A stretch of 61,514 nt of DNA, counting the filler, from Hausera hauseri (Eukaryota): the NCBI GenBank assembly GCA_046269625.1. It is 10 parts of 10 records of this genome, joined end to end, with 100 filler letters (N's around TTAATTAATTAA, not from the genome) between each part and the next. Parts side by side here need not be neighbours in the genome. Positions count along the whole stretch, not along the records: positions 1 to 14,061 come from JBJURY010699881.1; 9 more parts are not named here. One strand, written 5' to 3'. Of the stretch, positions 1 to 61,514 are shown in pieces. The position numbers were made by a program, and so were the translations under genes. Numbering within the stretch: position 1 is the first letter of the stretch; every line of letters begins with the position of its first letter. Below the pieces are notes generated by a model that saw nothing but the letters and a program-made list of their open reading frames with translations, searched no databases and was not told where the DNA came from.

Positions 1-1782
1 TGCTGGTTGGTGTGGAGGTCCAACTCAGCATTGCTCAAGTCTGAGCGTAACTTTTGAAGCAGAGCAGACGGTTTCATATTCCCTGTCTGTCGCTTGGTGA
101 AGACCAAGTTGAACTGGTCCTGTTGGTATGGCAGATATGCTTTGCATATGGCTGCTTTGATTTTGTCGAACGGGTTTTTATCTGACAGTAGCGTGTCCAG
201 ATCCATTATGGCTGCAAGCGTTGTTGGCTGCAGGTTTTGAATGAGTGTTAATGCCTTGTTTAGTTGGCCGGTGATGCTGCATTGAGTAGGCCATGTTTCA
301 AACACAGAACCACTTCAATGGCGTTCCGTCCGAATCTATGAAGAAGGTTGGACATGCTAATTTGTGTGGTTTGGCCTGTGTTGATGAAGCAGTTTCTGTT
401 TTTTTGTCGGGCGTAAGGTTGTCAACCCTGCTTTTAGTTTCGGAGTTGCCAGTGGTGGTATTGTCTACTAAAATTGTAGTGATTGCGCAATTATTCTTGC
501 GTAACAATTTTCCATTATAGGAAAATGTATGCTCGGGATACTGTTGGTTTAAAACTTCCAGCATTCCCGACATAGTTAGGGTCGATGGGAAGCGATGAGC
601 TTTTGTTTGACGCCAGTTTTGTACAATGAGTTGTACTTCGTTTGGCGTACCATCGGTCGATGTTATGTGATCACGTTCGATGACGTAAGTGAGTGTATCT
701 GGAGTGGTTTCGACGGCATTCGTGTGAGTTTGAGCCGGATTGCTATCAATGGCTGTGTTTAAAGTGGGAATAGGATGAATATCCATGGTTTTGTCCAAAA
801 GGGACGTAGGTGCGGTATTCGCTGCCACCATTTTAGAGGTCGGTATATTTGTGCCGGTCTTACCACTGGCCCACCACTTAAGAGCGATAAAACAGTACAC
901 CAAAAAGGAAATGAAACAATGACAAGAAAAAACGAGGTAATTGTCACAACTTTTATTGTTTACATAATCGCTGTTGACCGAGTTGATCGAGGCATACGAG
1001 GTATCCGTGGAGGATGATGCTGGGTAGTTTCGGAGACCGCGGCGTACACGGGTCGGAACGTCGTCCGAACTGGAGTCTGTCGGAGCTGGCTCTTGTGTCG
1101 GCTCCAACTGGCGGCGACGGAGTGGTATGGGAGCATCATTTAGGCTGCAGCTCACTGTCCTAGCCGTCCGCTTGTGAGTGGTTCGACGGTCAGGAATCAG
1201 CTGGCTTTCCGATGGAACCAGCGATTCGTACAGGCGATCGGTTGCCGCCATCAGTCGCAGGAACACTGGAAGGAAAACTGATGAGTTGAAGAGACGTCGG
1301 TTTTCCCTGTCCTAGTAAAACCTTTGGAGCATTCCGCTAGGTAGAGAATACGGGTTGCTCCGCCCCAGCTTGGTCAGGTTCCGTACGAAGCGGCTTTGTT
1401 GCAGTAACTCCCGTGTCGTCAATAAATCCGAATAAGACCGACACGAGGTTCTTTTGGCGGTGTTGCGGCGTCGATTTTCGCGGGAGGCGGTATTCTGTTC
1501 GGTGGTGTGTCGCCGTTCATCCGGTCGACCATGGTCCGGTGGTGCGGTGCGACTATCGACGCTATTGTCCGTCTTGGCATGTACCGGTCGGGGTATCTTT
1601 AGGATCCGATACCCCGAAGTCGGTATGGTTTGTCCGTCACCGAGAGTAGTGTTCGACAGTTTTTCTACGTCGGCCGGGATGGTCCTGGCATCGTTTTGGA
1701 CGATTGGTTCCCCGGGTTTTGTCATTTTGGCTGAATTTGCTTGCTGGTCCGACTTTTTCTTGATCGTTGTAAAAATGTTCAT
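1..1782 (-). mobile_element. gag: Ty3/Gypsy ORF1/gag with long N-terminal extension, degenerate; runs off the window start
   Basis: ORFs 1312-1782 and 298-1266 are in the same frame, separated by one TAG. A frameshift near 298 continues into a Gag core (CPTFF..P.KWF / FETW..I..KALTLIQNL..PFDKIKAAI..GNMKPSALLQKLR), a DUF7041-like/CsRN1-type pattern. Confidence 0.75.
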
Positions 1783-2074
1783 TTTGTTTTTTTCTCTTTA
1801 AAAATTCTGTCCAATCCTTGATTTGTGAATTTAAACAAATGGATTAAATCCACAGATCTTGATTGTTTTTTATTTTGTAAGTGCTGGTTATTTCAGCACT
1901 TGTAATTTTGTGATTTAATTTGTGGTTCCGTGATTTGGCGAAATTTAAAATTTAAGATTTGTGAATTTTAAATTTTGTTTCTGCTGATTTTATTTTAAGT
2001 ATTTTAATTTATGTGAGAGATTTAAATTTTGAGACTTGTGAATTTAAATTTTCTGAATATAAATTTTAATACTT

Positions 2075-2393
2075 TGTAAGGTGGAGCCTTACACCGCTGT
2101 TCAGTGATTAGAGGTACCGGAATTAACTGGCTCTCCGAAAACCTGCAGGAAAACCGACGAGTCAAAGAGTCGTCAATTCTTCCCGTCGTCGATTTTCCCC
2201 GTCGTCGATTTTCCCCGCCCCAGCACTTGCAATCCGCATTTCCGCTTTTATTATTTTTTGTTATTTGAGTGGGCTAATGTAAGAAAATTTGATTTTGGTA
2301 TATTTAATTTGACCGAATTTCTGATGTTCAAGTATTAGATTTAATTATTTATGTATGATTTTATACTGTGTTATTGTAAGGTGGAACCTTACA
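2075..2393. repeat. Two copies of a 19-nt hairpin TGTAAGG-tggar-CCTTACA in the putative retrotransposon leader
   Basis: Perfect 7-bp stems at 2075-2093 and 2375-2393, exactly 300 bp apart. Confidence 0.8.
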
Positions 2394-2738
2394 GGTATTC
2401 TGTTCTCTAGGGCGCAACTTCTTATTTATTCTTTGAGACAACCTGTTGGGGTAGGTCTGATAAATTACTTGTTAGTGAGTATCGAACACTAGGAAGTATA
2501 CTAATGTCGTTTCCCTTTTATTTATAGATTTTTTACAACCATCTTATGGACGGAATACCAAAGAGGGTTCTTAATTTAAGTTAATTAACCTTACTATAAA
2601 ACAAAATAAGGGATATTATTATTAAGATTTAATATTAGAACAATGATATTAAATACAAAATATAACACTCACAGTTGTTGAAATAATACATGATCCAAGA
2701 ACGAAGAATCATGAACTGTAAATCGGGCATATAGTGTC

Positions 2739-2860
2739 TGTTATATGTTGGGGTGGCCCATAATCAACTCCCACTATATAACAATTAAGTTATAGTCAAT
2801 TAAATTGCTCTTTAAGCAGGTTAGGATTACCGTTCTCGGTAAATCAGGATGTACCTTAAT
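2739..2860 (-). repeat. LTR 3' (R/U5) fragment related to the LTR at 27137-27260
   Basis: Ends ...ATATAACA on the minus strand. Shares ttggggtgg..c..ctatataacaat and the GAGAAC hairpin with the 27.1-kb LTR. No PBS follows. Confidence 0.6.
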
Positions 2861-4029
2861 AACTTTATTTGAGTTTACAGTATATGCAGGTACTACGTGT
2901 GAAATCCTATGCAAAATTTTAAAAACATCGTGCTCTTATCTATTTAAATTTATGTCCAATTTTTAGCCCTTAGGGTAGTCAAATCGATCTTAAGGATCGA
3001 AGATAAACTATCAAATCAATTTAAACCGTTTATAACACTAATGTATTTATTACTGCAAAACAGGAAAATTATTAATTCTGTTTCAAGAATCGTTCGTAAG
3101 TCTTTCCGATTTTTATACAACAACTGATAATTGAAAATTTCTCCACTGAAATTGCAAATTTCAAATCTGCAAATCGCAATATTGTAATCGTGTTTTCTTC
3201 TAATTTCCACCACTTATTTCTTACGTAACTACACAACAACAACAGCCCACATTTCTACACTGACTATTTATATATCTGACTGGGTGACTAATCAACTTTG
3301 CTTGGTTTAGTTTTGGTTTTTACAAATTTATTTTTAGTTCCTGAAAATTGTAGTGAATAATTTTGGTTTTGAAATAATGCCAATTTCTAAATTAGTTCTG
3401 GAAAATTCGCAAAAATTTTGTAATTTTTTTAATATTCCATAATATCACTAACATCATTTTCTACTAAATAGCAAAATTCTGATTGCATACGTCAAGTATA
3501 TACGGTACAATTTATGATTATTTACAAGTATACTACATGTCTTTTGTATATTGTGGATTTTTATCTTTCAAAACACGTATTTATATACAATCATTTCTAC
3601 ACTTCACATAAATTTGTAACAATTATATCATCACCATAAGAATTTTCCCATAAATTATAAGTCGAAAAGATAATTATCAATCAATAAAAATCAAAACCAG
3701 TCATTTTCGTAATATTCATTGTAGTAATAATTAATAATAGCTAATACACACAAAAAGGATCACTGGTTGTTCCACTGGTTGTCAACAATTTTAATAAAAT
3801 TTCAAATTAATTCACTGAATTAGCGAAATCATTTTACTCGACAATTCTTATGTCAATATTTTAAGAAATATGATAGTTAACTTGAAATAAGGTAAGAAAT
3901 TTGTATAAAATATTGCAACATTGTATGTTGGAATTTTACACACGAAATAATTATCCATATTGAAAACACCGGTGTCAGTCACATGGTTTTAGGAGTTTTT
4001 GCCTTAATGCAGGCCATAACTCTGTCCAA

Positions 4030-4870
4030 TTACCTCGTGGCGCCAAAACAATAAAACAACAAGGAAACAAAAAAATAAAAAAACAAAACTGGATAATTGT
4101 TGGAACATTTATTTTCATGACAATCGCCATACGCTGAGGCATACGATTCCTCGGTAGTGGATCGAGACGATCGGAGTGTACGAAGTCGACGTGGACGGGA
4201 TCGAATGTCGTCCGAGCTGGAGCTCGACGTCCGTGTCCACAGTGCTTTGATGGTACGGCAACCTGGAATTAACTGACTCTCCGAGTGAGCCAGGGATTCG
4301 TAAAGGCGGTCGGTTGCCGCTATCAGTCTGGTTAAGTGTCGTACGAAGCGGCTCCGTTGCAGTAGCTCCCGCACCGTCAGAAAATCCGAGTAGAGCCGGT
4401 ACGAAGTTCGCTTGCCGGCGTTGCGGCGTCGTCTTTCTCGGGAGACGGTATCTCGCCGGGTCAGGCACGGCTGGTCAGTCTTGAATGTCGAGGCTTGGCT
4501 GGTGTCTGGGTGTCGCATCGTTGTCAAATCTGGTTGGGATCGTTTAGGGATTTGGTAGTTCGAAGCGAGCCGCATATTCCTTTCGGGGACGGTGACGCCT
4601 ATTAGTGTGGCCTTCGCACCTTCCTTGGAGATGGGTTCTCAAGGTTTCGATGCCTTGGTTGAGCACAATTGCTTTCTGTCATAGCTGTCTGTCGTGGAAG
4701 GCATCTTGCCGCTGCCGCTGGTCGATTCGTTCATTTTTGATTTTCTGGCATTTTGGTCCTTGTGTATCTTTCCTTTCTCTTTTTCTTTTTGAAAACTTAA
4801 CTACTGACTTTAAACTGTGGATTTTTGATGAAAAATCCATATTTACTTTTTTGGATATTCCCATTTGTCA
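4030..4870 (-). mobile_element. Second, diverged copy of the Gypsy ORF1 N-terminal region
   Basis: RRRNAGKRTSYRLYSDFLTVRELLQRSRFVRHLT-RLIAATDRLYESLAHSESQLIP is clearly paralogous to about 1190-1470. It keeps the downstream hydrophobic segment. Confidence 0.75.
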
Positions 4871-4925
4871 AAGTTAGTATTGCCCATTTTTTGAACAGAT
4901 GTATTTCAAAACGGGAAATGTTGTT

Positions 4926-5165
4926 GAAACGGGTCGAGTACAGCGGATCACTCTTGTCATAGTTTGACGTATCTAACTGCTCGTTTGCTATCATTGCTGG
5001 CAGGAGCTGTAACCTCAAATAAACACGGCATTCGATAAAAAAACTATCTGTATCACCGGCAACAATATTAAGTTCAGACTGAAACTGGTGCCTATATGTC
5101 TCCGACTTGATATAATTTAGCTCATACATCCGTAACTTGGATAGATCAAGTACGTCATGTCCGAT
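4926..5165 (-). mobile_element. polB: Polinton/adintovirus-type protein-primed DNA polymerase B fragment
   Basis: IG..VLDLSKLRMYE..GDTDSFF..DTSNY motifs; highly similar in DNA to about 14530-14780. Confidence 0.85.
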
Positions 5166-5181
5166 TATTTAATTCGTACGT

Positions 5182-5209
5182 ATGAATGAATGAATGAATG
5201 AATGAATGA
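5182..5209. repeat. (ATGA)7 microsatellite
   Basis: Read directly from the sequence. Confidence 0.95.
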
Positions 5210-5223
5210 TTTACAAAATCACC

Positions 5224-5787
5224 TCAACAAATGGATAAATATTGATTTTTGTTTTTCACGCGTAATTCGTGAGGGATCCATTTGTTCAACTTTCTCACTT
5301 TTCCAATTTGTCGCAGGTGATCACAAACAGTTTTATTATCAACATCAAGTATTTTTGCGAGTTCCCGGATGGTTTGCCGCGGATTGAATTCAATAAGCTG
5401 TTTCAAAGCACAGTTATCAACGGACGATTGTCGGCCTGAGCGAGCTTTATCTTGAAGATTTGTATCTCTGGAACGGAATCTTTTGAACCAACGCTGAGCA
5501 AGTCGATCACTAACGGCGTTCTGCCCCACGCTAGACAAATATTGTGAGAGGCCTGATTTAAATTCATACAAAAGACACATTCGAATTTATTGTGACGTCA
5601 TAATTCCAATTAAGGTCTACAAATAAAGTAAAATAAAGATAGTGAAAAAGCTTTCTCTGAAAATTAAAGATTAGAATAGTTTAAAATTATTGATTATTAG
5701 ATTTTGTACATTCAACAATAAACGTAAGATATATACGCATTCAATTTTCAGTTTAGAAAAACCGGCAATACTTTTCCCTCAACATGA
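5224..5787 (-). mobile_element. Mariner element, 5' part (TIR plus N-terminal transposase), truncated before the catalytic domain
   Basis: WFKRFRS..LQDKARSGR and KWIPHEL (WVPHEL) motifs. Mariner-type TIR TA|TCATGTTGAGGGAAAAGTATTGCCGGTTTTT at 5789-5757 (minus strand). Confidence 0.85.
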
Positions 5788-6289
5788 TATTTATCTTAAT
5801 CACTTTTTGACAATTCAAGCATGTTTACTTGCGCATTTAAATATGCTTGGTTCGACTTTTTCGCATATTCAAGGATGCGATTTTCAATTCATTTTCAGCC
5901 CAATACCCGATGATTGTTCTTGAAGCCCAAACATGCTGTAATATATTTTGCAAGCCGAACTCCACTTTTTGACTAAATTTTAATCGTCGGCTTTATCTCA
6001 TGTTAGTCATCCTTTCGAAAAATGGTTCTCAAACTGGAATCCACGTTTCTCTTTGGGGTTATTGCCAAATTCCGTATTTTTTCTCAGTAAGAAAGGTCTA
6101 TGGATTGATTGTAGTTCATTTATTAAAATCGTCGAAATAGTTTGATGACTACAACCTTCGAATATTATGAATAGGGCCATATTTTCTGAAAACTAAAGTC
6201 GAAATTCGATTCAATCAATTTATAAAATTATGCAAAAATTATAAAGGATATGAAAAATCTTGAAAGGCAATCATCAATCACGGACTCAC

Positions 6290-8315
<2,026 letters not shown>

Positions 8316-9089
8316 TTCTAAATTGCGTCAATTTCAATAAAATGAGAAAAATTTACAAGTGTGTGTAATTAAAAATTTTATATTACTATATACTTATTGT
8401 CGTTGTATTTTAGATCTGTTCAGTCAGGTTTAATATGAGTTAATCAGATTATGACATCAGTATTAAATTTATGGAACAAGTCTTTATTTCTTTCGTTGGT
8501 AGATTTAATGATTGTATGAAAATAATATAGCTTCAGAACATCAATTCATATATATTTTAAAAATATTTGGGCAATGCTTAAACTTGTAAATTCGACTTGA
8601 TAATTATATTAAAAGACTGTTACACGAAGCATTTCAAAAGCAAGATCTAGAATAATTCTTGAATGTTTAAGCCGTTAAACTTAGCGGTACTGTTTCATAT
8701 TTCATGTTGCTGCTTTAGTTCATTTTCAGTAAAGAATCTGATGACAACCAATTATTCTTAATGTATAATAAAATCTAGAAATAGATCTAAACTTGTCAGT
8801 TTCATCTTTTAGTTTCTAAGTTTTTAAAATCATGAACTAAAGATACACCTTCAAAGTTTCTTGGATTTATAAAGGCATTCCGTAAGATATTTTTGTATAT
8901 TTAAGACAATGTGATCTTCATTCAAAAGTGAGAATTACAAAAATATAGAGAACGAAGAATTGATGGGTGCAAAACTCAAAAATACCAAAGCTTAGGTGAA
9001 TACAGAAAACTCTTTATTATATGCTGAATTTAGACGTTATGCATGGAAATATTAAATTGAAATTAAACTACATATAGAATTCATAGGTT

Positions 9090-9650
9090 TCACACTGGTT
9101 TGCCACCATACTATTGCACACCAACTATCCGTTTTCCATTACTAACTTAATATCATTACACATTTGTGGATACGTTTCTTCATAATAACTTGTTGGTTGA
9201 TTGTCTTACGTCGCCTCCGTAAAATGGGCATGTCTTCCTGACCATTTGTCAATATATCTAGGAATTTAAATTTGGTTTTCCCGTATCATGACACGGTACC
9301 ACACACTATGATAGTGTCTTCTTATACGTCACATTCAATCAGTAGATATACCTGTTTTCATTGATACTTTCTAATATATGCTTTTGTGATGATCCGTTAC
9401 ATTTATCATATTTGACATTTTATCACACTTTACTTTTCATTCTTATAGTATTGAAGCTCTTGGATGTACCTAATGTTTTTGCAATTTCCACTTGGCTTTC
9501 ATGATAAGTACTCCATTCTGGTTTTGGTGATGTGAGAGCCAGTTTCAGTGCCTTCTCACACCTTGGTTAACTGATGGTTCTAGGACGGCTTGATCCTATT
9601 TTTCGTACTTCTGCTTCTTCTTTTTCAATTATCTACAGCCGCTGTGATAC
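9090..9650 (-). mobile_element. Highly decayed Tc1/mariner-superfamily transposase remnant
   Basis: RPRTIS..SQVEIAKTLGTS (HTH-like) and IIVCGTVS*YGKT (VMVWG.IS..GK-like), with many stops. Confidence 0.4.
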
Positions 9651-10004
9651 TAGTTGAAATTATAATGATTATTATAATATGCTAGATAATATTTTCGTTC
9701 CGTCGTCATATGGTCAGAAGGTTTATGTCAAATAATATTCACGAAATTTCTATTTGAATTTGTAACTCTTGTATGACAGAAAAAAAAACAAATGTTCTTA
9801 AAAGAACGTTCAATCTTGTTAAACTAAATGACTTTTGCGTTAATTTCAGAAAGATGAAGAAAATGTCAAATTAATTATATTGAGAAATGTATCTATAATG
9901 AGTTGCATTCATCTTTATATTAGTGAAACATTTAAATCAAAACGAGATAAGTCGAAAAGTTTCATTTGATATTCATAGCAAAACAGAATAAATGATAAAA
10001 AGTG

Positions 10005-10938
10005 TTATTGTGTTGTATTATCAAGTTCAATATCGTACAAAGGTTTGGTGACCTTCACATGAAACATACGTCTTCTGCAAGCTTTTTTTTATTTTCTCTA
10101 GTCTTGAATGAGAGAGGAGCGGAATGAAATATTATTACCATTGTGACAAATCTATAGTGCACAAATCATCCAAAATGATCCCATCGTGCTCATTGGCATT
10201 GATATCCTTTAACGAATGAATGCTTCTTCATGTCAATGGGCTCGACAAATGTCGAACAATATACGAACGTTTCCCAAGGTCAGACGCTCCTATGAATGCC
10301 ATAATTTTATATGCTGACTAAATTATTGAGCAATTAAAAAACTTGAAGGTCAACACTTGCATCACCAACTTCTTTTTGAACGTTGGTTTTTCGAAGTGCT
10401 TCTTGAATACACTTTCATGTGTGATACAATACTTCAGCATATATTTTGAATATATTCCATAGTCTTCGGCAACGTTGAACATTTTTTCATTATTTATTAC
10501 TTCGTTCATCTACGAAACAATACAAAAGTTATGGAAATAAGTATAACTTAGACTGGTTACCTTGTAGATTCCTGAGGTGCATTTCCCATCGGGAGTTTGA
10601 ATGTACCGGAAAATTTTGATTTATAATGGTGCTCTGCATTGAGTGCTTGTGGTGTTCCATAAGACATCATATTCGGCATACAGAATTTGATACGTGCCTT
10701 ATCGACAGTAATTTTTTTGCAGGTGCACCAGCAAATGCCAATGCTTGCTACCATCAGAGGATAATTCCTCGTACATCCAAACGTATTTCTTATCTACAGA
10801 TAATTCGGCATGGTTTTTATGTACTTCACGAGGCTTAAGGCATCTGTCTTTATTACGCCTATGACCCATGTTCCTCTGGGACCTGCCTGGGTATCGTACA
10901 CGACATCCTCACCAATTTTTGTGTCGTGGTAGAATCAC
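10005..10938 (-). pseudogene. rep: Endogenous CRESS-DNA-virus-type replication initiator (Rep: HUH endonuclease + SF3 helicase), frameshifted and intron-containing
   Basis: EELSSDGSKHWHLLVHL (HUH motif, 10735-10743), FIGASDLGK (Walker A, 10270-10290), HDGIILDD (Walker B, 10165-10188) and ACRRR..V.KPLY (Arg-finger region), in the correct order. GT-AG introns at 10510-10560 and 10318-10365. Confidence 0.75.
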
Positions 10939-12538
10939 CTAAACATCATTTAAGTCCATTTCTATTATTTTCATAAACTGTAGAGTTGTAAACAATATAT
11001 GACAATTTCTTCATTTCTTAGTAGATTAGCATTGCTATTACTGAAAACTTCTACAGTTAATTTGAATATTAAAAGAGATTCGAAACAAAATATGTATATC
11101 CTGAAAATCCACGTGATATTATCATTGTGTTACAACATTTTAAAATAGGTGCATTAATACTTAATTAATACTTGTTGATTTGCAGGGAAAAGTGCTTTCG
11201 AATTCAGAATCGGAAAACTCCAAAAAATTCCTGGTCACGGGTGTACAAGACTTCCTGTGAAGAAACCCTTGTCATACGTTATCTTTAAAGTGTTTAAATC
11301 ACTTTGAATTATGATTTTCATGAACTGAATGTGATTACGTTTTTCACTGATGACTGATAAACTGGTGATCTGTAAAATTTGTTACATTTTTGCGGCAGTT
11401 TGAAAGAAACTTGCAAAATTTAATGTATTTAAGTAACAATACAGGAGATTATGTTCTTGTTTTTGAAATCTAAAACATCGCCTATAGTAACTTACAAGAT
11501 TCTAAGGAGTTGACTGAGTTGGTGAGGAATGTTTGAATTTATAATTGAATGACTTTTTTTGCCCTACTATCGTTATTTACAGTTACAATTAGACGCAAAC
11601 ATCGTGGTGTTTAACAACGATATGTTCATTAATTGGTCATAGTTTATTTCTTCATTATACCTTTATTTATTATACATTTTATTATTGTACAGCCTATTAT
11701 CCATATGATTTCTCCAATGACACAAAGTGATATCTAAATAAATATTCAGATATTTAATACTGTTCTCGCAGTAAGATTAAGTACGTTGAGCATTTTGGAA
11801 ACATCACCAGCAAATATGAATCTTGGACCGACGTCATACGTGAACGATATCTGTAAAACCAAGTGGGAAAACGAATCGAGTAATTGACCCAAAATAATCT
11901 CCATAATTATGATGAGGTTACATTTTGTTTTGTAAGAGGAATTGCAGGAATTCGTACATTGATGAGACAGGATAAAAATAAAACATAAAGAAGTAGATAG
12001 ATTCCTACTAACTGATGAATCAAAAATAAAACAATTTAGAAAACAATGAGGTGCTTAAAAGTACCAGACACAGACAAATGCAGTTAAATCTAAAAATAAA
12101 CTAGAAAAAACAATACGTGATTAATAAGCAAGCAATAAATCAATAAGTAAATCCCAACATTATTTAGACATAAAATTTTAAGCCACTTTATCTCGTTTTA
12201 TTATAAAACGGTATACTATGTCATTTTATTTCTGATTATGCGTAAAGTTCATTTTGTAGAATTATACCATTTAATTAAAAATCAACGATGGAACTTATGA
12301 TAACGATGCCAATAATTATTTTTCAATTAACAACCTTCGTATGTAGATCTAAAACACTACATGGTGATCAATGATAAATATTATGTGCATTTCTATGGAG
12401 AATATTACATAAGTGCGCACATTGAAATGTGTTCTAATTGTTATCAATAAATGTGTTTTAATATTCATATGATTAAATTTTATGGAGCTCATTTTATAAA
12501 CCATTTGTCAATTACATTATTTGTAAATATTTTTCGTA

Positions 12539-13188
12539 ATGTTAGAAAAAATAACAACTTTAGACAGAAAGGTAAATAAATATTTCACACCTGGTTCAGT
12601 TCTGCGAAAACATTGCATTGGGTTTTGGTTTAGAAATGAAAGAATATTATTCAAAAAAATGTTATTGGCATAGTTACAACTCACGGAGGAAAGTTGGTCC
12701 AACGAAAGCCAAACATCTATTGGATTGATTCGAAAAGTAAAGTTTACATTCCACACGAGGGTGATCGTATTATTGCCAAAATTGCGAAAAAGACGAATGA
12801 CTATTATTTTTTAGATTATGGAGGTTTTTCCTACGCCCATTTGAATTATCTGAATTTCCAAGAAGCAACAAATAGCAATAGCCCAGATATAAAAATTGGG
12901 GACATTATTTATTGCCAAGTAATTCTGGCCGGACGTGGCATAGAACCAGAAGTTTCTTGTATTAATAATATGGGAAAATCAGTCGGTATGGGTGTTATCG
13001 ACCATACTGATGATTCGGTCATTAAACTTTCCCTACCATCTGTGAGGAAATTGTTGGATATTAAAAATTTTCCCTATTTGAAGAAATTAGGGTTAGGAAT
13101 TTTGCCTCATGAAATCGTTATTGGTGCCAATGGTTGGATTTGGTTGTCGGCCAGATCGAGCAGAGAATACTCTACGCTTTTGAATTGA
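12539..13188 (+). pseudogene. EXOSC3: Exosome subunit RRP40/EXOSC3, intronless, with 5' frameshifts and a premature end
   Basis: YWIDSKSKVYIP..GD.II, F..AT..N.P.I.IGDIIY, EPEVSC and IGANGWIW motifs. The N-terminus (FTPG / LGFGL / IVTTHGG) is split over three frames. Confidence 0.85.
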
Positions 13189-14061
13189 CACCGCACATTA
13201 GTAGTTCAGCAATCTGTGATATCATTCAGCTTGTGTGTGTAGTGGAATGTTTATTCAATATTCTTATGGTGAATTTGTGTCAGAATTGAAATAAATTTGC
13301 ATTCGTTCTCTTTTTAATGTTGGTTTTTGTAAATGGTTTTATGAAAATATATTGTGGTTTTGTCCCACCAAAAGGTGTATTTGTAAAATTTTGGATATTG
13401 TTTGAGCTGTCACCATTTCTTATGTACAGTTTAGATGTTTGTACACTTTGGTTATTTCATAGATATTGATTAACAAAACGAATAGATAATTTTTGAAATA
13501 TCTACATGTTTATACTTTGTGGGTATGCACAAATCAGTCGAAATATAAACATTCTAGTTAATCGACATTCGAATTAAATATTGTAATCAGCCTAAACGTT
13601 GTGATCTTTAACTGATCGTTGTACGATTTTAAACGCATAAGCAATTAAACATTGTAACATACTGTGATCTTTCATTGTCATACGCTTAGTACATGAATTA
13701 TTTATAATTTATGGATAATGTTTGTGACTTATGGATGGTTTTGTTCTAATTTGGACAATTTCTAAATAAATTGTTGAATTTTGTGTATACAAAATGGCGT
13801 ATAAAACCTCAACATATGTAGTAAAAGTATACTCCCAAGTGATCGTTATATTATTTATTATGAGCATGTCTAACTGAGTTTATTTTGTTATAAAATGCGT
13901 CTGCTTAATTTAATAATCGTAACTTAAAGAATGGGATTATAGACTTTTTTAGTTGGAAAGTTTCATGGTTACGTCACAAAACACCTTTTAATAAGAGCCT
14001 AAAATGAGAAATTCTATATTTCACCATTTTTCGAAAGCGATTTTAACATATTTATACTCAT

Positions 14062-14199: not shown

Positions 14200-14862
14200 T
14201 CCACACATGTCAATATGCGACACTTTTGTTCTTGTCAATCCACTGGCATTTGTCGTTGAACGGATCTAATGCTTTCTTTTTTGAGCTGATTGTCATGAGC
14301 TGGTTGTTTTAGTGCCAATTCGCCCCTGATCCACCATGGTGCTATAACCGGTTTCATAAGCCTGTAGGTAGCTGTCGAACTGCAAGTCTGTCTGCTTGAG
14401 ATTTATGCCCTTGCATTTAAGGACTGGTTTGGTTTGGGTTTTGAGGGCATAGGATTTCGGCCGTAGGAAAATCGTCTCTTGATACTGAACGCAGCCCTTG
14501 CTTTCGTCTTTAAATTTGCCAATTACAGCTGCGAAACGAGTCGAGTACAGCGGATCAGTCTTGTCATAGTTCGATGTATCTAGCTTCTCGTTTGCTATCA
14601 TTGCCGGTAACGGTTGCGACTTTAAGTCAACTCCACAGCATTCAAGGAAAAACCTGTCTGTGTCACCTGCAACAATATTAAGTTCACACTGAAACCGGTG
14701 CCTATACGTCTCCAAATCGATATAATTAAGTTCATATATCCGTAACTTGGAAAGGTCAAGTACGACCTGACCGATATATGAGGGTTTATCTAAAGTAACC
14801 ATGTCTTTATCAAGGAGAACAGTTACCAGAGGTTTGTCGAATTTATTAAATTGCTTATCCAA
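14200..14862 (-). mobile_element. polB: Polinton/adintovirus-type PolB, C-terminal fragment
   Basis: KPSYIGQVVLDLSK, GDTD, DTSNY, IGKFKDE, LRPKSY and KCKGI, then frameshifted KKALDPFNDK. Confidence 0.9.
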
Positions 14863-14940
14863 ACCGAATTAGATAACAAATGTTGGAAGACAGCTAAAAT
14901 CATTGAAGTTTGGTCAGTGTGTATGTTTTGAGGCAATAAT

Positions 14941-39537: not shown

Positions 39538-40047
39538 TAGGGTTACAGTACAGTTACGGTTAGGTTTTTACGGTTAGGGTTACGGTTACAGTTACAGTTA
39601 TAGTTACGGTTACGGTTAAGGTTACAGTTATAGTTACAGTTACGGTTACGGTTACAGTTATAGTTACGATTACAGTTACGGTTATGGTTACAGTTATAGT
39701 TACGCTTACGGTTACGGATACAGTTATAGTTACGGTCACGGTTACGCTTACAGTTATAGTTTCGGTTACGGTTACGCTTACAGATATAGTTACGGTTAGG
39801 TTTACGGTTACGGTTATAGTTATAGTTACGCTTACAGTTATAGTTACGGTTACGGTAACGGTTACAGTAATAGTTACGGTTACGGTTATAGTTACAGTTA
39901 CGGTTACGGTTACAGTTATAGTTACGGTTAGGTTTACCGTTACGATTACAGTTACAGTTACGGTTACGGTTACGGTTACAGTTATAGTTACGGTTACGGT
40001 TACAGTTATAGTTACGGTTACGGTTACAGTTATAGTTACGGTTACGG
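39538..40047 (+). repeat. Degenerate telomere-like hexamer array (TTACGG/TTACAG/TTATAG, one TTAGGG)
   Basis: About 85 hexamers; canonical TTAGGG at 39574-39579. Confidence 0.9.
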
Positions 40048-47130: not shown

Positions 47131-47949
47131 AATCGACACGTCGACTCCTTTTCGCACTCCTGAACTTCCTGCTGTTCCTAAATCTGCTTCTACACCTGTC
47201 CCACCTCCTCCTTTTGCTTTTACTTCTGCTTCATNNNNNNNNNNNNNNNNNNNNNNNNNNNNNNNNNNNNNNNNNNNNTTAATTAATTAANNNNNNNNNN
47301 NNNNNNNNNNNNNNNNNNNNNNNNNNNNNNNNNNAGTTGAACAATTCAAAAACCATAAATACGTGTATGTTATAATAATAATCATGGACTATAATGGAAA
47401 TTGTACACATTTATTACAATTGACTTCAGTAAAATGGAGGTAATTTGTATCATTGTGTAAATATCTATTGTTTACAATGAAAACAAACCTTTGATGTAAA
47501 TATAGATGCAATTTCATTTCACGTTTTTCTTGTTTAAAAACTGTGTTTGGAAAACAATTCAGCAGGTGACAGTCTCTTAAAAAGTCACGGTACAGCGAAT
47601 ATTCCCTCAGAAATTTATGGTTGTATAATGGATACAACTTGCATTATCTGCGCAACGCTATTCAATTGCCATTGACGCAAACGGTCAAAATCAAACCGGT
47701 GAAATATGGTCCATTGGTGAAAAGGATCACCGACGATGATTTGGATACAATTGAAGACACAATTAGAAAAGTTGACAGTGATTTGGCAATGAGTAACGAT
47801 ATCCGAGATACATCGTCAATTTTTCTCAAATTAAATATGGCGAAAATTATGGGTTCACATGGTGGAGAAACAGCAGCAGCAGCAGCAAAAGCAGTTTTGC
47901 CATGCGTGCATGTTTTATTCCAAACACCAATGTCCGTACGCCCAACTCT

Positions 47950-50900
47950 TATTTCGCCCAACCACTTACGCCTATCATCATCGCATGATAAAGCGACTTT
48001 TGTATTGGTCATCGTATACAGCTGGTGCACAATCGACCGGATGATCGTTTGTGACACAGCAGCCTTTGACTGTCCTTCTTCTTCATAGATACGGTGATAA
48101 TCACCGTGGTTTATTTCCATCTGAGCCAACTGAACTCCTTTGGCGCGCATTTTCGGCCCACCATCAGTTAAAAGGCTAATATTTTGACCATAGAAATATC
48201 CCTTCCCGATAATAAACCCGATATTCACTTTCATCCTTGAAGCAGCCCGTTTTGTTGGTGATCGCGCTGCTGTACAATGGATGATTCGGTGGGTAGTTGG
48301 ACGTGTCCTGTAATCCGTCTGACTGCATTTGCGGCAGTAGCTGTTCGCGATTGACTTTTTTCAGCCGCAGGAAAAAACCGTCTGTGTCACCGGCAATTAT
48401 ACTAATGTCACAGCCGTAAAACATTTGCCGGTAACGTGCCAAGTCGGGATACTGTAACTCATACATCCGCAACTTGCTCAGGTCCAATACCACTTGTCCA
48501 ATGTAACTTGACCGGTTCAGAACGACTTCTTCACTGTTTAACAGCACCGCAACCAATTCATCGGCAATGTGCATTGACTGCCGAAACTGTGCCTTGCAGG
48601 TATACGTAAACAGCCGATTTTCGCTGTTTCATAGGTGTACATCGAGCCGCTTTTTCAGATTCTCCACTGTTTTTCCTCACAGGGAATTGTTTTGCAGCTT
48701 GTAGTAGTCCTTTTCGAACTTTGTGCAATCTGCGGCTCGTTTTTGCAAAATACCATCTATGTACTCCTTGAATATTAAAGCCTGGGCAAATCGGATAGCG
48801 CGATAGAGCTGTGTGATGCGTACACCCAACCGAAAGTAAGACTGCAACAGACGACAATGAACTATGTAATTTTGCTTGGATTCATGCGTCATAAGCAGCT
48901 TCTTCACCTTCGAGCCCGGCGTACATTGGCTAATTGGTGCAACCGGCAGTTCATCCAGAAATTCATCAACTTATCTGTTACCACGAAATTGACCTCCATC
49001 TAGTTGCCGACTGAGCTGTTTTCTGCTGTTGTTGTGTCTGATGTCGACAGCTTTTCCAGTATTGTGTCTAGGTCTTGTTTGTCGACTACCCATTCAAATG
49101 CACCCAACGGCAAGGGTTGTGAAAACGTCCAGCCGTACAGGTTATTAATGTCGATATACAACAGCAATGTGGTATCATCACTGGTTACGTGATGCTTGTT
49201 AACAAATGCCATACTGCGACGAATACCAACGTCAAACATTCGGTACATTTCCGAGTCTTTCAATAGCTCGATATCCCGATCCAGTGACATCATAGCTGAT
49301 GCCCAACTCATTCCGGATATTGAGAAAAAATTGAGTGACTCAAGCATGTCTTCTGCCAAAACTTTCGCTTGAAACGCATGGAATACATCGGTTAATAAGT
49401 ACATATCCAGTTTGAGATACTGGAGCATGTACTCCAGCATGTTTGTACGGCCGAGTTCTGTCCAAGATTCTTGTGCTCTTTAATATTTATCTTCTGTGGT
49501 GCCTGTCCATCGCGGCGGTAATTACTCGGCTGTCCGGAGTCGCTCATATGATGTTGCAAAGTCATATGGAAATATGCCTTTGCTGCTTGCAATATGGAAC
49601 CAATTTATTCGTGCTGACGAGGACAGGTACTTCTTCATTTTTGTTGGGATTGTGGACAGTTCCCAGTGCGGAAATCCGTTGATTGTCCATTTCAGTATAT
49701 GGTGACAATAATAACCTTGCAAATTATGAAAGATCACCGGTAGGAATGGCCACACACGCCTTGCCAAATTGCATGAATTGCATGCTGCTCCTAGGAATCG
49801 ACCGGTAAAATGATCATGATCCGGTACGAGCCGTCCCTGTGCATTAAAAGGCAACATTTTGTGGCAGGGACAACATTCATCAATGACATCGAAAAGCAGC
49901 GGTTCATATTCTCATGTTTGTATCAAGGGCTTAATGCTATTGTTACTGTACCACTGTACGATTTCCGTTTCCACTATCGTTTCCAACTGTTGCAGGAAAT
50001 CGCGTAAATAGTTCCAGCTATGAAAAACGTAATTGAGGCTTTTATTAGAACAACCAACATACCCACGGCGATTGGAATGTGTTTTTGGTTGAATACGTTA
50101 TGCCGTGGTAGGATTGCCTCGATATCGGCCTATACCACATATGCTGGACTCTCTGTTTTCAATCAGTCACTGAATCTCAGCTCTTTTATGTATCTTGTTG
50201 TCCCTGATAAATTTTGTCTGCACAGCACCACATGTTATTCCAATGTCGTTTTTGACCTGAAACCATGGAGATATGTAGGACACCATTTACAATTTATAAG
50301 CTTTTTGATAAATTGGTAGTGATCCATGTTCAGCAATATGTCCAAATTGGTTACTTACACGTAGTGAAATTTACCTTCTTGCTCCAACAGCAACAAATTC
50401 ACCGAGCGTCCATTCAGGTTCCGACTGAGATAAATTATATCCACGTGTGGGTTTTGGTATATATTATCGTCTGCCGGTATTTCTACTATAATGTTGTACC
50501 GGAAAACGTTGATTGCGAGAGTAGGAATACGCCGTTCAAATGTCGGGATGGATTTCTGTTTCATCGGCATCCAGCTTTCATCGAATTCCAATTCGGCAAA
50601 ATACTAGCGATACTGCTTTGGACGATTTGTATGATTTCTAACCACTTCGTCGTATTTGAATATAGCCAGGATACTGTAAATAAAACAGTATTTGTCGTCG
50701 GAATTTGTGCATTCATTACCGCCAAAGACTGCTTTAGAGATGCAGGTGTCGGTATGAATGACCATTCAGACAAATATACCACGTCACTCGACTTTGTTAT
50801 GATAAAGCCGAGAGTGGCAATTCGTATAATTCGCCATTCACTACCCTTTTCTGTATAGTTGGCAATTTTCTCATCCAACTTTTCGCCTACATCGGCAATA

Positions 50901-57290: not shown

Positions 57291-57515
57291 GCGAGTAGTT
57301 AGAAGGGACGAGTTGGCGCCAACCCCCCCCCCACCCCCCGGGGAACGAAAAAAACAAACGGAAAGAGGACACATCCCCGGGGAAGAGAAACCGGCGAATG
57401 GAAAGAGGACACGTCNNNNNNNNNNNNNNNNNNNNNNNNNNNNNNNNNNNNNNNNNNNNTTAATTAATTAANNNNNNNNNNNNNNNNNNNNNNNNNNNNN
57501 NNNNNNNNNNNNNNN

Positions 57516-60500
57516 AAATTTGCTTTCCCGGATACAGTGACTGTTTATCCATTAGCCGATCAAAATTTGTTCTAATATCTTCTAAAGTACCAGTTGTAAA
57601 CTGTTCTTTTTCAATTTCGAATGGTGATCTGATGCACAATGAAAAGAACATCTCAGTGTCTTTTGTATTCCGCAGAACAACACGTTTCTTAAATTTCACC
57701 GACTTGCTAAGCGCAAAGCCATTATTCGTCTGCAGCAGGGAGCTATACGGGGCAATTAATGAAACTTCTTCTACTTCTTCTGCATCAGGATAGTCGATTT
57801 GAAGTCTTGGCTGCAATATTCTTGCCGTAATATCCAATCGTATTTGATTAACTAAGTACTGATGATGTCGTACTATTTTATTCTTCACCAACAAATCTTT
57901 AGCATTCAAAGAAATAATGCCCAGCAAATAGTTATATAAATCAATGCCCATATTTTCGTCCCATGTGTAATGCCCATCAGAGGTAGGATCGGCTGGTACA
58001 AAATGAACTGTAATAAATGCAAAAGACTCGGCAGCAATGTGGAGTTGATACGGTTCACAGAAGATGGGAAATTTGGATAGGGTTCCATCATGTGGTCGGA
58101 TGATAGTAGAAATGAAATTCGTAGTTGCATTCAATAATTGAATATCCTCAGAGAACTCGGTTCTATCTGTTGCATTTACATGGTTATCTTTCGAGCAAAC
58201 TGTTCGATCCGTTGCATTTAATACTCTCTCGGTAATTTGCCGAGTTGTGCTACTGTTATCAGTATCAATCGTTTCATCATTTCTGGTATCTGATCGTAAC
58301 GAATCAATATTATTAGATTCTTTAGTCTGACAATTTTCGTGACTAATTGGAAATGGATCGCCAAAATTGACAATGAAATCAATGAGTTTATCATCGGAAT
58401 CATTCGCATTTCGATACATCTCCAAATTTATATACATATCGTATGGACTTTTGTTGTTCAGTCGTATTTGTCTTGTTACAATTTCATGGCCAACGGGTTT
58501 ACTACCTAGTCTAAGAATAGGTTTCTGATCCTTTCTACCAGCAGTCATTGTAAATTCAATAGGAGCTCCAATTATACGAATGGACATAGGAATTGTAATA
58601 GGTTCGGTTTCGACTGTCTCCGTAGTTCCAGAAATCGTAATTTTATCCCCGTATGAACCCCACATATCGTTAAATGCAGTGACTTCAACGACGACCTTTT
58701 CATAACTATCAAGTATTCCACTAGAAGGATTAAAGTCAACTGCCAAACCATTTTTATGCTTAAGTTTGTTTTTGCAAAAATCATAATGCGCCAGATAGTC
58801 TGGTTTGCTTTGTTTGTCTGCAAGATTCGGTTTCAATTTGAAATTTACTTTAACATCATCTGACGATGCTTTGAAATAATCAATCAGAATTGAAAATTTC
58901 GTCACGATAGAAGTCGTATTTTCTATGACGATGTACTTTTTGACGTCTTGAAAGATGGCTACATCTTCACCAAAATCAATGCTTGTATGTCGTTCACATG
59001 AATCAATAGTATCTAAAATACTATATTCCAATCGAGGTCCTCGACATATTCCAACAATTTCCAAAACAATAGGTTCTGTCATATTTTCAATCAAACATGG
59101 AACGAAAATATCTTCCAATTCCGTCACAACAGAGCACGTAACTGCCAATTTTACAATAACTTTACCATTCGGTGATAAAGTTCCTGATTGAGGATCACAA
59201 ATAACGTTCACAACATTTGACTGATCTCCACGAGGACTTTGCCAAACGTATCTACATTCAACATGGCTCTGGTTGCATAAAATGACGTCAAATATTGTTG
59301 GAGAGATGACGTCAAAAATGACGTCAAATATTGTTGGTGGAGATCTGTTTCCTACTAGGGTAACCAAAAGAACTCTGTAATTTGTGCCTCGCAAATCTAA
59401 GGCCATGTAATGTCCACGTTCATTGCCAGTTGGTATTTTCATCTGAAGTGACATTTTTTTCAAAGTAGCATACTGACGTTTCTGTATGTTTTTCGTTAAA
59501 AATTTATTATTTATCGAAACAGTTCCATTGGTTATTCCAGAATGGTAACTCGAAATAGAGTTTGAAGGATAATCCATTGCGGAATGATTCTGGTCAGAGC
59601 TGGAATGTAAAGAAAAGATACTCGGGTTTGGATATGGGGTTAATGGTGAAAACAATGGTTTACAAACGCCGATATCATTAATTTGTGATGAAGATTTCGA
59701 AGGAAGGATGTTTTTAGCCACCACATGATTTGGACACGTTGTATATTTCGGATTTGGTTTTAAAATCGACGACTTCATGCGGCATTTTTTGCTCGCCCTT
59801 AACTTAGGAGCATGACCAGTTCTCTGTACCCTGTTGAAAAGTAAATTCATATGACTGTTCTGAGAAAAGTAATAAAGTGGCGCCGGTGTCAGAGATGGAG
59901 GATGTATGTCGATGTTTGTATAAATCTTATTATGCCTTTTAGATGGATATACATGAGGTTGACAACATGACTGATACATCACAGGAGCAGGTTTCAGTTT
60001 GGGAATATCAGTGAAGACTTTCTCACAAAATGATAATGGGATATTAACGAATTTTAGATTTGGATCGTATTTAACTGATACAATAACGCATTCATCATCA
60101 GAATCATCGGTAATATTGTTATTGTTCTGATCGTGCATCTCGTTCTCAGTGACAGGCACTTTCGTGGTTATAATTACATCTGCATCACTCTGCTCTGATA
60201 TTGTTTCATTGGGAGTCTGACTTCCAACGGATGCAACAGTCGATTCACATTTACCATCATAATGGACACTTTCATTAACATCAGGAGTATCAAGTGGATC
60301 GGTATCGGAATTACAATTAGAATTTACAAGAGGATTCGGAACAAGATGATCGTCAGAATTGTCAGGAAGAGTATTATTTTGACAATAAGGATTTGGTTCT
60401 ATACTTTTTTCAACATTACTGCAATCAGTATTGACCTTTTCAGGTGACTCGATGTCCAGATCTTCCGTATCAATTTGAAGACAATTCGACGGTTGTAATG

Positions 60501-60993
60501 ACACGGGGGAGAGTGTTGAAGTAGCGTTCAATGAATTTTCTGTATTCAAAGCATCTTCTGTGATTGAAAAATTGCACAATTCTTGATCTGATGAGACCCT
60601 TTTAGTTTCTGATTCTTTAATACCATTACTATTTCCTTCAATATTTCCATTCAACAAAACTTTATAATTCTGATTTTCCTTATCCTTACTGATAAACAAC
60701 GAAATATGGTCAAATTGACTACATTCGTCCAATTTCTTGTGCGGTGAACATGACTGTCGTCGTTTGCATTTATTAATTGCTAACGTCAACGCAGCAATGT
60801 CCGGCTTGCTTTTCCGTTGTGCCGTTATTCTTGTCGGTGAAATTGCCGGGGATATGTTAATTTTCACTTTTGGTTCTGTTTTGTTCGATGCATTTTCAGA
60901 TGGTCTGAATGGTTTCAATATTTCTGACACCATTGTTGTTATTTGGTATTCTTGTGATACCGGTATATAAAAAATTCCATTAGTTAATTCCAT
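57516..60993 (-). CDS. Mosaic ORF: hexokinase N-terminus, ~470-aa low-complexity insert, hexokinase phosphate-1 segment, DLEC1/CFAP81 internal region; truncated by spacer
   Basis: VSEILKPF (about 60993-60898) and IPTGNERGHYMALDLRGTNYRVLLVTL (about 59340-59480) are hexokinase-like. 59285-57516 matches DLEC1 (P..G.L.P, PC....M..P..L, DFG, NDMWG.Y.D, R.G...G...VTR..RLNN.SP.D). Confidence 0.8.
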
Positions 60994-61514
60994 TAGTGCG
61001 TCAAAAGAAATGAACGACTGAACTGTTTATTGCTTTTAAAATTTTCTATAATCAATTTCTAAATTAATCATCAAAAAATGACTCATTAAACCGTACAATA
61101 AAATGAAATAGACTAATATAAAACATTCAGTAATCATACAATATATCGAGTTTATTTTGTTTCAAATTCCAAAAATAATAGTTTCCATATGTAATCAAGT
61201 GCAGTGCAACTTTTCCTTTGATTTTGATATCACTTTTTATCGCTGACATCTTGGGGTTTAACATTTTAACCAGCATATGTAATACTGTTGTATGTTTTTT
61301 GTAACATAACGCTTTGGTCTTTTTGACTGTGTTTCAATGGCACTTAGACATCCGCTTTTACTAGAGAAACTTCTCTTTCATAAAATAATCTTCATTTATT
61401 GGTGGTCTCCTGAAAAGATTATTGAGACAAATGAAATGTATCAAAAGACCAGAGAATCGAGAAAAACTGTCAAATTTAAATTCTCCAATTGCATTAAATT
61501 CTCCAATCGTAAAA

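Follow-up and report, generated by a model that had tools for sequence, protein, structure and literature searches.

The window, meaning the whole stretch of 61,514 nucleotides of Hausera hauseri DNA analysed here, consists of short contigs chained via N spacers. A Rep element lies on the first of these contigs (1-14061), which it shares with the following host loci:

about 6290-8330, minus strand: multi-exon PFKFB gene (Pfam match)
12027-12146, plus strand: frataxin-like exon (E 0.004, below the cut-off) with in-frame stops, a probable pseudogene
12640-13188: RRP40

With PFKFB and RRP40 on its contig, the element is joined to host genes within genomic DNA, and its insertion point lies between PFKFB and the frataxin-like/RRP40 region. 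Three PFKFB introns measure 46, 57 and 47 nt, and their flanking exons match consecutive positions of the 6PF2K profile of Pfam. Their donors are loose (GTAACA, GTGAAT and GTGGGT), one of them sharing GTAAC with intron 1 of the Rep. PFKFB carries an in-frame TGA in the window (6666-6664, minus strand) where runs X1 and X2 both read a sense codon, with another base at 6666; the TGA is either a variant private to the window or an error of assembly.

Elsewhere in the window there are fibronectin-III repeats, a Pao retrotransposon, a mariner HTH and a DLEC1-like gene, and because of these the host is likely an animal. Pao elements are mostly metazoan. The DLEC1/CFAP65 Ig-like domains occur in an open frame of 1188 codons (57460-61026, minus strand) in which a short hexokinase fragment is embedded, and about 84 GGTTAC-like units in tandem (39541-40047) adjoin the Pao retrotransposon. 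Decayed fragments at 4797-5168, 14293-14868 and 47662-49911 resemble protein-primed PolB of the Polinton/adintovirus type; Pfam DNA_pol_B_2 matched 49000-49476 with E 3e-4, and the remaining fragments were judged by eye. The contig end at about 13950-14061 is a very high-copy repeat with a summed depth of >22,000 in run X1.

The Rep element itself is made up of the following features, listed in the direction of translation:

10939-10941, minus strand: in-frame TAG, taken by the sequence-only reading as a splice acceptor
10138-10938, minus strand: main Rep frame of 267 codons, supported by profile scores, with the nuclease, the linker and the first half of the SF3 helicase
10735-10767, minus strand: motif II region, with the conserved Glu (10767) followed by HWH (10743-10735), an HUH motif
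10594-10611, minus strand: candidate motif III in the FRYIQTPDG stretch, whose Tyr at 10605 aligns to the invariant Tyr column of an 89-row alignment
10510-10560, minus strand: candidate intron 1, 51 nt, phase 0, AAG/GTAACC, a T-rich stretch and TAG
10318-10365, minus strand: proposed intron 2, 48 nt, with a 39-nt variant from 10356
10267-10290, minus strand: Walker A, GASDLGK
10165-10188, minus strand: Walker B region, HDGIILDD
10083-10137, minus strand: remnant between Walker B and the Arg finger, frame broken
10005-10082, minus strand: C-terminal piece bearing the Arg finger and the PLY tail, in a frame different from the main frame (18.1 bits)

A phmmer search of 1.84 billion proteins gave two matches at E<=0.001, one of which was a CRESS Rep (P0003, E 6e-4). 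The other, to P0002 (E 4e-12), a cadherin-like protein with 15 repeats, was rejected as a repeat artefact. Rep profiles built from 68 relatives, gathered starting at P0003, scored the main frame at 45.2, 41.1 and 54.3 bits, and nothing outside the element exceeded 5 bits in the window. The Arg-finger tail (RRR..V..PLY at 10082-10035, followed by a stop codon at 10007-10005, minus strand) was, with its 18.1 bits, the top position over all six frames of the window. The sequence-only reading had placed an HUH motif, Walker A, Walker B and this tail on the minus strand; by phmmer and by the Rep profiles, which match at 41-54 bits, their presence at these places goes beyond chance. In the motif II region the His is invariant and the Glu near-invariant across the 89-row alignment. 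The region was also matched by Gemini_AL1 of Pfam (E 0.0038, below the curated cut-off) and by the TYLCV Rep structure 7vg8 (E 0.34). On the main frame as a whole, Pfam returned only Gemini_AL1 and REP_ORF2-G2P, both weak and below the cut-off. A fold search placed Rep nuclease domains in the top PDB rows, none of them reaching E 0.001, and gave 131 viral matches at E<=0.001 whose named top rows were Reps; since the model used in both cases was itself derived from the Rep alignment, these matches are not independent evidence. No match was obtained with a word-based protein search or a viral-contig scan using the X-read frame, and plasmid and phage tblastn searches and PHROGs gave no useful match to the Rep. 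By its motifs and profile scores we regard the element as a genuine CRESS-type Rep, with a predicted HUH nuclease joined to an SF3 helicase.

The remaining nuclease motifs are less distinct. An ungapped scan of 10800-11100 found no motif I block above chance. The candidate motif III is without the Lys of YxxK; in the structure model it falls within a predicted helix, and the ungapped motif scan did not place its block above chance in any frame, including the two in which the catalytic Tyr region had been sought. The Tyr at 10605 is a candidate of uncertain standing, and the catalytic Tyr is not securely identified. The sequence-only reading had invoked a frameshift to reach FRYIQTPDG and to bring intron 1 into phase. 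No such shift is required: a single frame holds the HUH motif, the Tyr, both GT-AG segments and both Walker motifs, and crosses two TAA stops. A parallel open frame runs from 10793 to 10557 on the minus strand, and in spliced alignments two of three profiles switch into it near 10631-10637, so that compensating frameshifts near motif III are possible.

The gene is heavily decayed. The main frame has six stops in its 267 codons, at codons starting 10911, 10701, 10623, 10512, 10320 and 10230. From Walker B to the Arg finger there are 32 codons compared with 51-74 in 98 relatives, about 30 helicase codons being missing, and in the 10083-10137 remnant motif B' is absent and motif C was not recognised on scanning, a loss that we read as decay. 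Walker A is without the Thr/Ser that 107 of 108 relatives have. The density of stops in the Rep corresponds to roughly 0.06-0.11 substitutions per base of neutral decay. A reassigned genetic code was rejected, as stops of all three types are present. Judged by these lesions, the Rep copy is dead and cannot function at present.

Contigs of run X1 cover 9096-10836 with no differences and 10807-12400 with one, crossing both ends of the element. Because these contigs match with 0-1 differences, the lesions of the Rep are not assembly errors, with the proviso that run X1 is possibly the source of the window itself and hence not independent. Run X2 is a second sample holding pieces of the element and of its flanks, none of its contigs bridging an end by 31 bases. 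At a depth of 2-3, its pieces differ by five substituted bases and one deleted base within 10043-10198 and have two differences in 10274-10467. A second path in run X1 leaves the element at 10807 as a 60-nt contig of depth 10 without a match in the window; it is either another haplotype or another copy, differing beyond that point. A 37-nt match of run X1 at 10564-10600 with seven differences was treated as chance.

The sequence-only reading had proposed multiple host-sized introns. The 51-nt GT-AG segment at 10560-10510 (minus strand) is there as described, starts 14 codons past the candidate catalytic Tyr and is predicted, with good confidence, to be a genuine spliceosomal intron. Cutting it, with X at the junction, raised the score of all six profiles (+1.4, +1.6, +1.4, +2.8, +4.4 and +5.6 bits), and among 203 equal-length cuts it ranked 2, 23, 2, 6, 3 and 4, respectively. 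Its T fraction of 0.45 lies above all 722 overlapping background windows, an in-frame GTAA donor at an intron-1-like distance occurs for only 20 of 245 codons, and its length, a multiple of three, falls within the host range of 46-57 nt. Unconstrained spliced alignment used the acceptor at 10510 in two of three profiles, the third not reaching it; this spliced alignment took its donor at 10553, not 10560, with a different upstream frame. In the structure model, itself built from the Rep alignment and thus no independent test, residues 118-147 form the sole internal stretch with pLDDT <50. The gains amount to a few bits, in a linker from Tyr to Walker A that varies from 81 to 133 residues among relatives, and because no relative is close, none directly tests either intron junction.

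The 48-nt GT-AG segment at 10365-10318 also exists, but its standing as an intron is equivocal, with the profiles split: cutting it changed their scores by -3.2, +4.9, +0.5, -0.4, +4.7 and -10.7 bits. Cutting both segments scored below the intron 1 cut alone in five of six profiles and left a spacer of 72 residues from Tyr to Walker A, compared with 81-133 in 65 of 66 relatives (the odd one, 25, is a misplacement of the pattern); the unspliced linker of 105 lies inside that range. The segment carries Phe-Asn at -16/-15 from Walker A; Phe stands at -15 or -16 in 57 of 107 relatives, with Phe-Asn nearby in 28. The 48-nt cut moves the nearest Phe to -14, a register held by only 2 of the 107. Unconstrained spliced alignment never used intron 2 with any of three profiles, and the segment has pLDDT 72-82 in the structure model, again derived from the Rep alignment. 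In favour of an intron are its T fraction of 0.42, reached by 1.4% of background windows, its GTGA donor, a class that 30 of 245 codons have by chance, and the two profiles that gain 4.7-4.9 bits on cutting. That intron 2 is genuine appears doubtful to us; 10318-10365 is more likely a coding linker ahead of Walker A in which a nonsense TAG mimics an acceptor.

Both segments do remove stops, as had been claimed, but only two of the six. The further candidate acceptor near 10939 has its AG at 10940-10939, within the in-frame TAG. A third candidate at 10138-10098 (GTAA donor, 41 nt) has ordinary T content and yields a stop on joining; a motif C seen there by eye found no support in the scan. Multiple introns are not supported: one is likely and a second unlikely.

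Capsid genes were sought in 8350-10010 and 10940-12650 by tblastn with 274 ORFs from related loci, and none was found, although a heavily spliced or decayed one could be missed this way; ten ORF-family profiles and Pfam, run on 12 flank frames, produced no score higher than the controls did. On the plus strand at about 11050-12050, short exon-like pieces, divergent from the Rep and without a Pfam match, alternate with GT-AG segments of 37-60 nt. Reading the spliced-looking plus-strand stretch at about 11050-12150 as a divergent capsid gene was rejected in the absence of any capsid match. The best hairpin candidate for an origin reached -3.4 kcal/mol without a clean loop, compared with -6.3 to -10.7 kcal/mol in three relatives (L007, L011 and L012). 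The sequence-only reading had likewise seen neither a capsid gene nor a convincing origin stem-loop, and these flank searches and hairpin energies agree with it.

It had further left open a rolling-circle transposon, an option that gains nothing from our results. No second Rep copy was found within the window and no element termini were recognised, an 8-bp direct repeat (9999-10006 and 11287-11294) being at about chance level. Contig depth over the element is 13-17, like that of the flanks. An apparent empty site, a run X2 contig joining 10009 to 11294, proved false, consisting of two matches of 21-24 nt with 153 other letters between them and unrelated outer ends.

The relatives of the Rep are distant. 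It shares 36% identity with P0003 over 67 residues from Walker A to Walker B and 13-22% with relatives in the 89-row alignment, the best whole-protein match being about 22%; further scans for relatives gave distant Reps only, among the matches listed. A quick tree (116 columns, 108 rows) put it in no supported clade and on an end branch of 2.64 against a median of 0.35, a long branch that rests on columns taking in the doubtful intron 2 segment. Because this branch far exceeds the 0.06-0.11 of neutral decay, most of the divergence likely predates the death of the gene. The parental Rep lineage was thus likely an unsampled one, already far from sampled Reps.

Loci of relatives were fetched, 78 of them with a Rep match and many redundant. 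One (L011, IMGVR_UViG_3300020043_009888) represents a free CRESS genome that carries a nonamer hairpin and a capsid resembling Gemini_coat/TNV_CP. Its Rep has a GT-AG intron of 122 nt (1105-1226) separating the conserved Glu from the HUH motif, a site that differs from the candidate sites in the element; GC is 0.38 in the intron and 0.52 in the exons, both of which are open. The loci examined included no virus intron at the site of intron 1. Because this free genome has a Rep intron of its own and spliced Reps have been published, a virus-borne intron is the simplest reading, and by analogy intron 1 is probably of viral origin.

On balance we lean towards a dead CRESS-virus Rep fossil of an unsampled lineage, with one genuine 51-nt intron that was probably virus-borne. 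A virus would have infected the ancestors of the host and replicated in the nucleus, where the host spliceosome would have spliced the Rep transcript; judging from the host introns observed, it would handle introns of about 45-60 nt. A Rep-bearing piece without recognisable capsid or origin may then have integrated at the position where it is found, between PFKFB and the frataxin-like/RRP40 region, and its lesions would reflect neutral decay after integration. The fossil of an unsampled ssDNA virus was one of the options raised from the sequence, and a dead Rep among host genes fits it.

It is also conceivable, if rather unlikely, that a Rep captured in the distant past lived on as a host gene or a capsid-less mobile element, diverged under selection, gained one or more host-type introns once integrated and died only recently. 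Geminivirus-like transposons and expressed Rep-like genes have been described, as far as the consulted part of that survey goes (PMC3198968). The divergence from sampled Reps is far above neutral decay, but an unsampled virus accounts equally well for the long branch. Catalytic positions are altered (the Lys of motif III, the Thr/Ser of Walker A, the short helicase), as would also be expected under decay. Intron 1 fits the host in size and donor, unlike the 122-nt intron of L011; intron gain, however, is a rare event next to the inheritance of an intron from a virus. There are, moreover, no termini, second window copy or empty site, and the depth is like that of the flanks.

Less probable is a Rep fossil free of introns, both GT-AG segments being accidental, AT-rich inserted or decayed sequence ending in a nonsense TAG. 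Each in-frame TAG brings an acceptor with it, and for 122 of 245 codons there is a GT in frame at 36-63 nt upstream; lesions are also plentiful elsewhere in the element, and the unspliced linker stays within the range of relatives. Intron 1, in contrast, combines the rare GTAA donor with the highest T content in the element and a host-like size, and all six profiles favour the cut. Still less probable, in our view, is a dead representative of an unrecognised, animal-resident, capsid-less HUH-SF3 family, either a CRESS-derived transposon or a family of domesticated genes, lying far beyond sampled Reps and having gained two or more host-type introns after the viral stage. That a viral or foreign fragment was merely mis-joined into a host contig would suit a window chained from short contigs and a Rep without close relatives, but is very improbable, given that the two run X1 contigs run into both flanks at flank-like depth, that run X2 has diverged pieces, and that a replicating virus would not carry such lesions.

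As a fossil, the element would link what is probably an invertebrate host with a very divergent, unsampled lineage of CRESS Reps, and intron 1, if true, would be one more independent site of a Rep intron; with Rep fossils and spliced Reps already known, both points are increments. If intact, multicopy or conserved relatives existed, the locus would instead document a route from an ssDNA virus to an intron-bearing animal element.

The Walker A-B signature and the Arg-finger tail of the element are shared with unclassified CRESS viruses (P0003, P0037, P0045; L003, L007, L011), and the HxH nuclease with the P0045/L007 subgroup. We take the helicase motifs of the P0003/L011 group to be CRESSV6-like. 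This tentative label comes from these motifs and from the geminivirus-like capsid of L011, read with the relevant part of PMC6668415.

The intron of gemini- and genomovirus Reps lies nearer the helicase than intron 1 of the element, and no member of that intron-bearing clade was among the matches examined. In the portions of the sources consulted, Rep introns are described for mastre-, becurto-, capula- and grabloviruses and Genomoviridae, and at another site for circoviruses (bioRxiv 10.1101/687855), and spliced Reps are predicted for 36 cruciviruses (PMC7468197). Like the element, these Reps have a GT-AG intron inside an HUH-SF3 rep gene, but the helicase of the element belongs to another group. 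With introns predicted in cruciviruses and present in circoviruses and L011, there is only weak ground for taking an intron outside mastreviruses and genomoviruses as a sign of gain in the host.

Endogenous CRESS Reps resemble the element in being Rep-only insertions in non-coding host DNA (Liu et al. 2011, PMC3198968; Kinsella et al. 2020, PMC7493932). According to the sections consulted, degraded Rep insertions are common in eukaryotes (PMC3198968; PMC7493932), and most endogenous Reps are degraded by stops, frameshifts and deletions, as here (Liu et al. 2011, PMC3198968). The element differs from them in its likely intron and in having no close viral donor known. The word 'intron' is missing from the main texts of both articles, supplements aside, and the literature searched, subscription papers and supplements aside, described no endogenous CRESS Rep of animals with an intron of host size.

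Replitrons likewise place a CRESS-Rep-related HUH endonuclease in eukaryotic chromosomes, and Replitron-1 has two introns (Craig 2023, PMC10288648). In the part of that work consulted, they have no helicase, are mostly HUQ, occur in multiple copies with terminal direct repeats and are not reported from animals (PMC10288648), whereas the element has an SF3 helicase. Helitrons combine Y2 with an SF1B helicase, unlike the SF3-type helicase found here, and Pfam searches gave no Helitron family match to the element. By its predicted domain architecture, the element is to be filed with endogenous CRESS Rep fossils, not with Replitrons or Helitrons.
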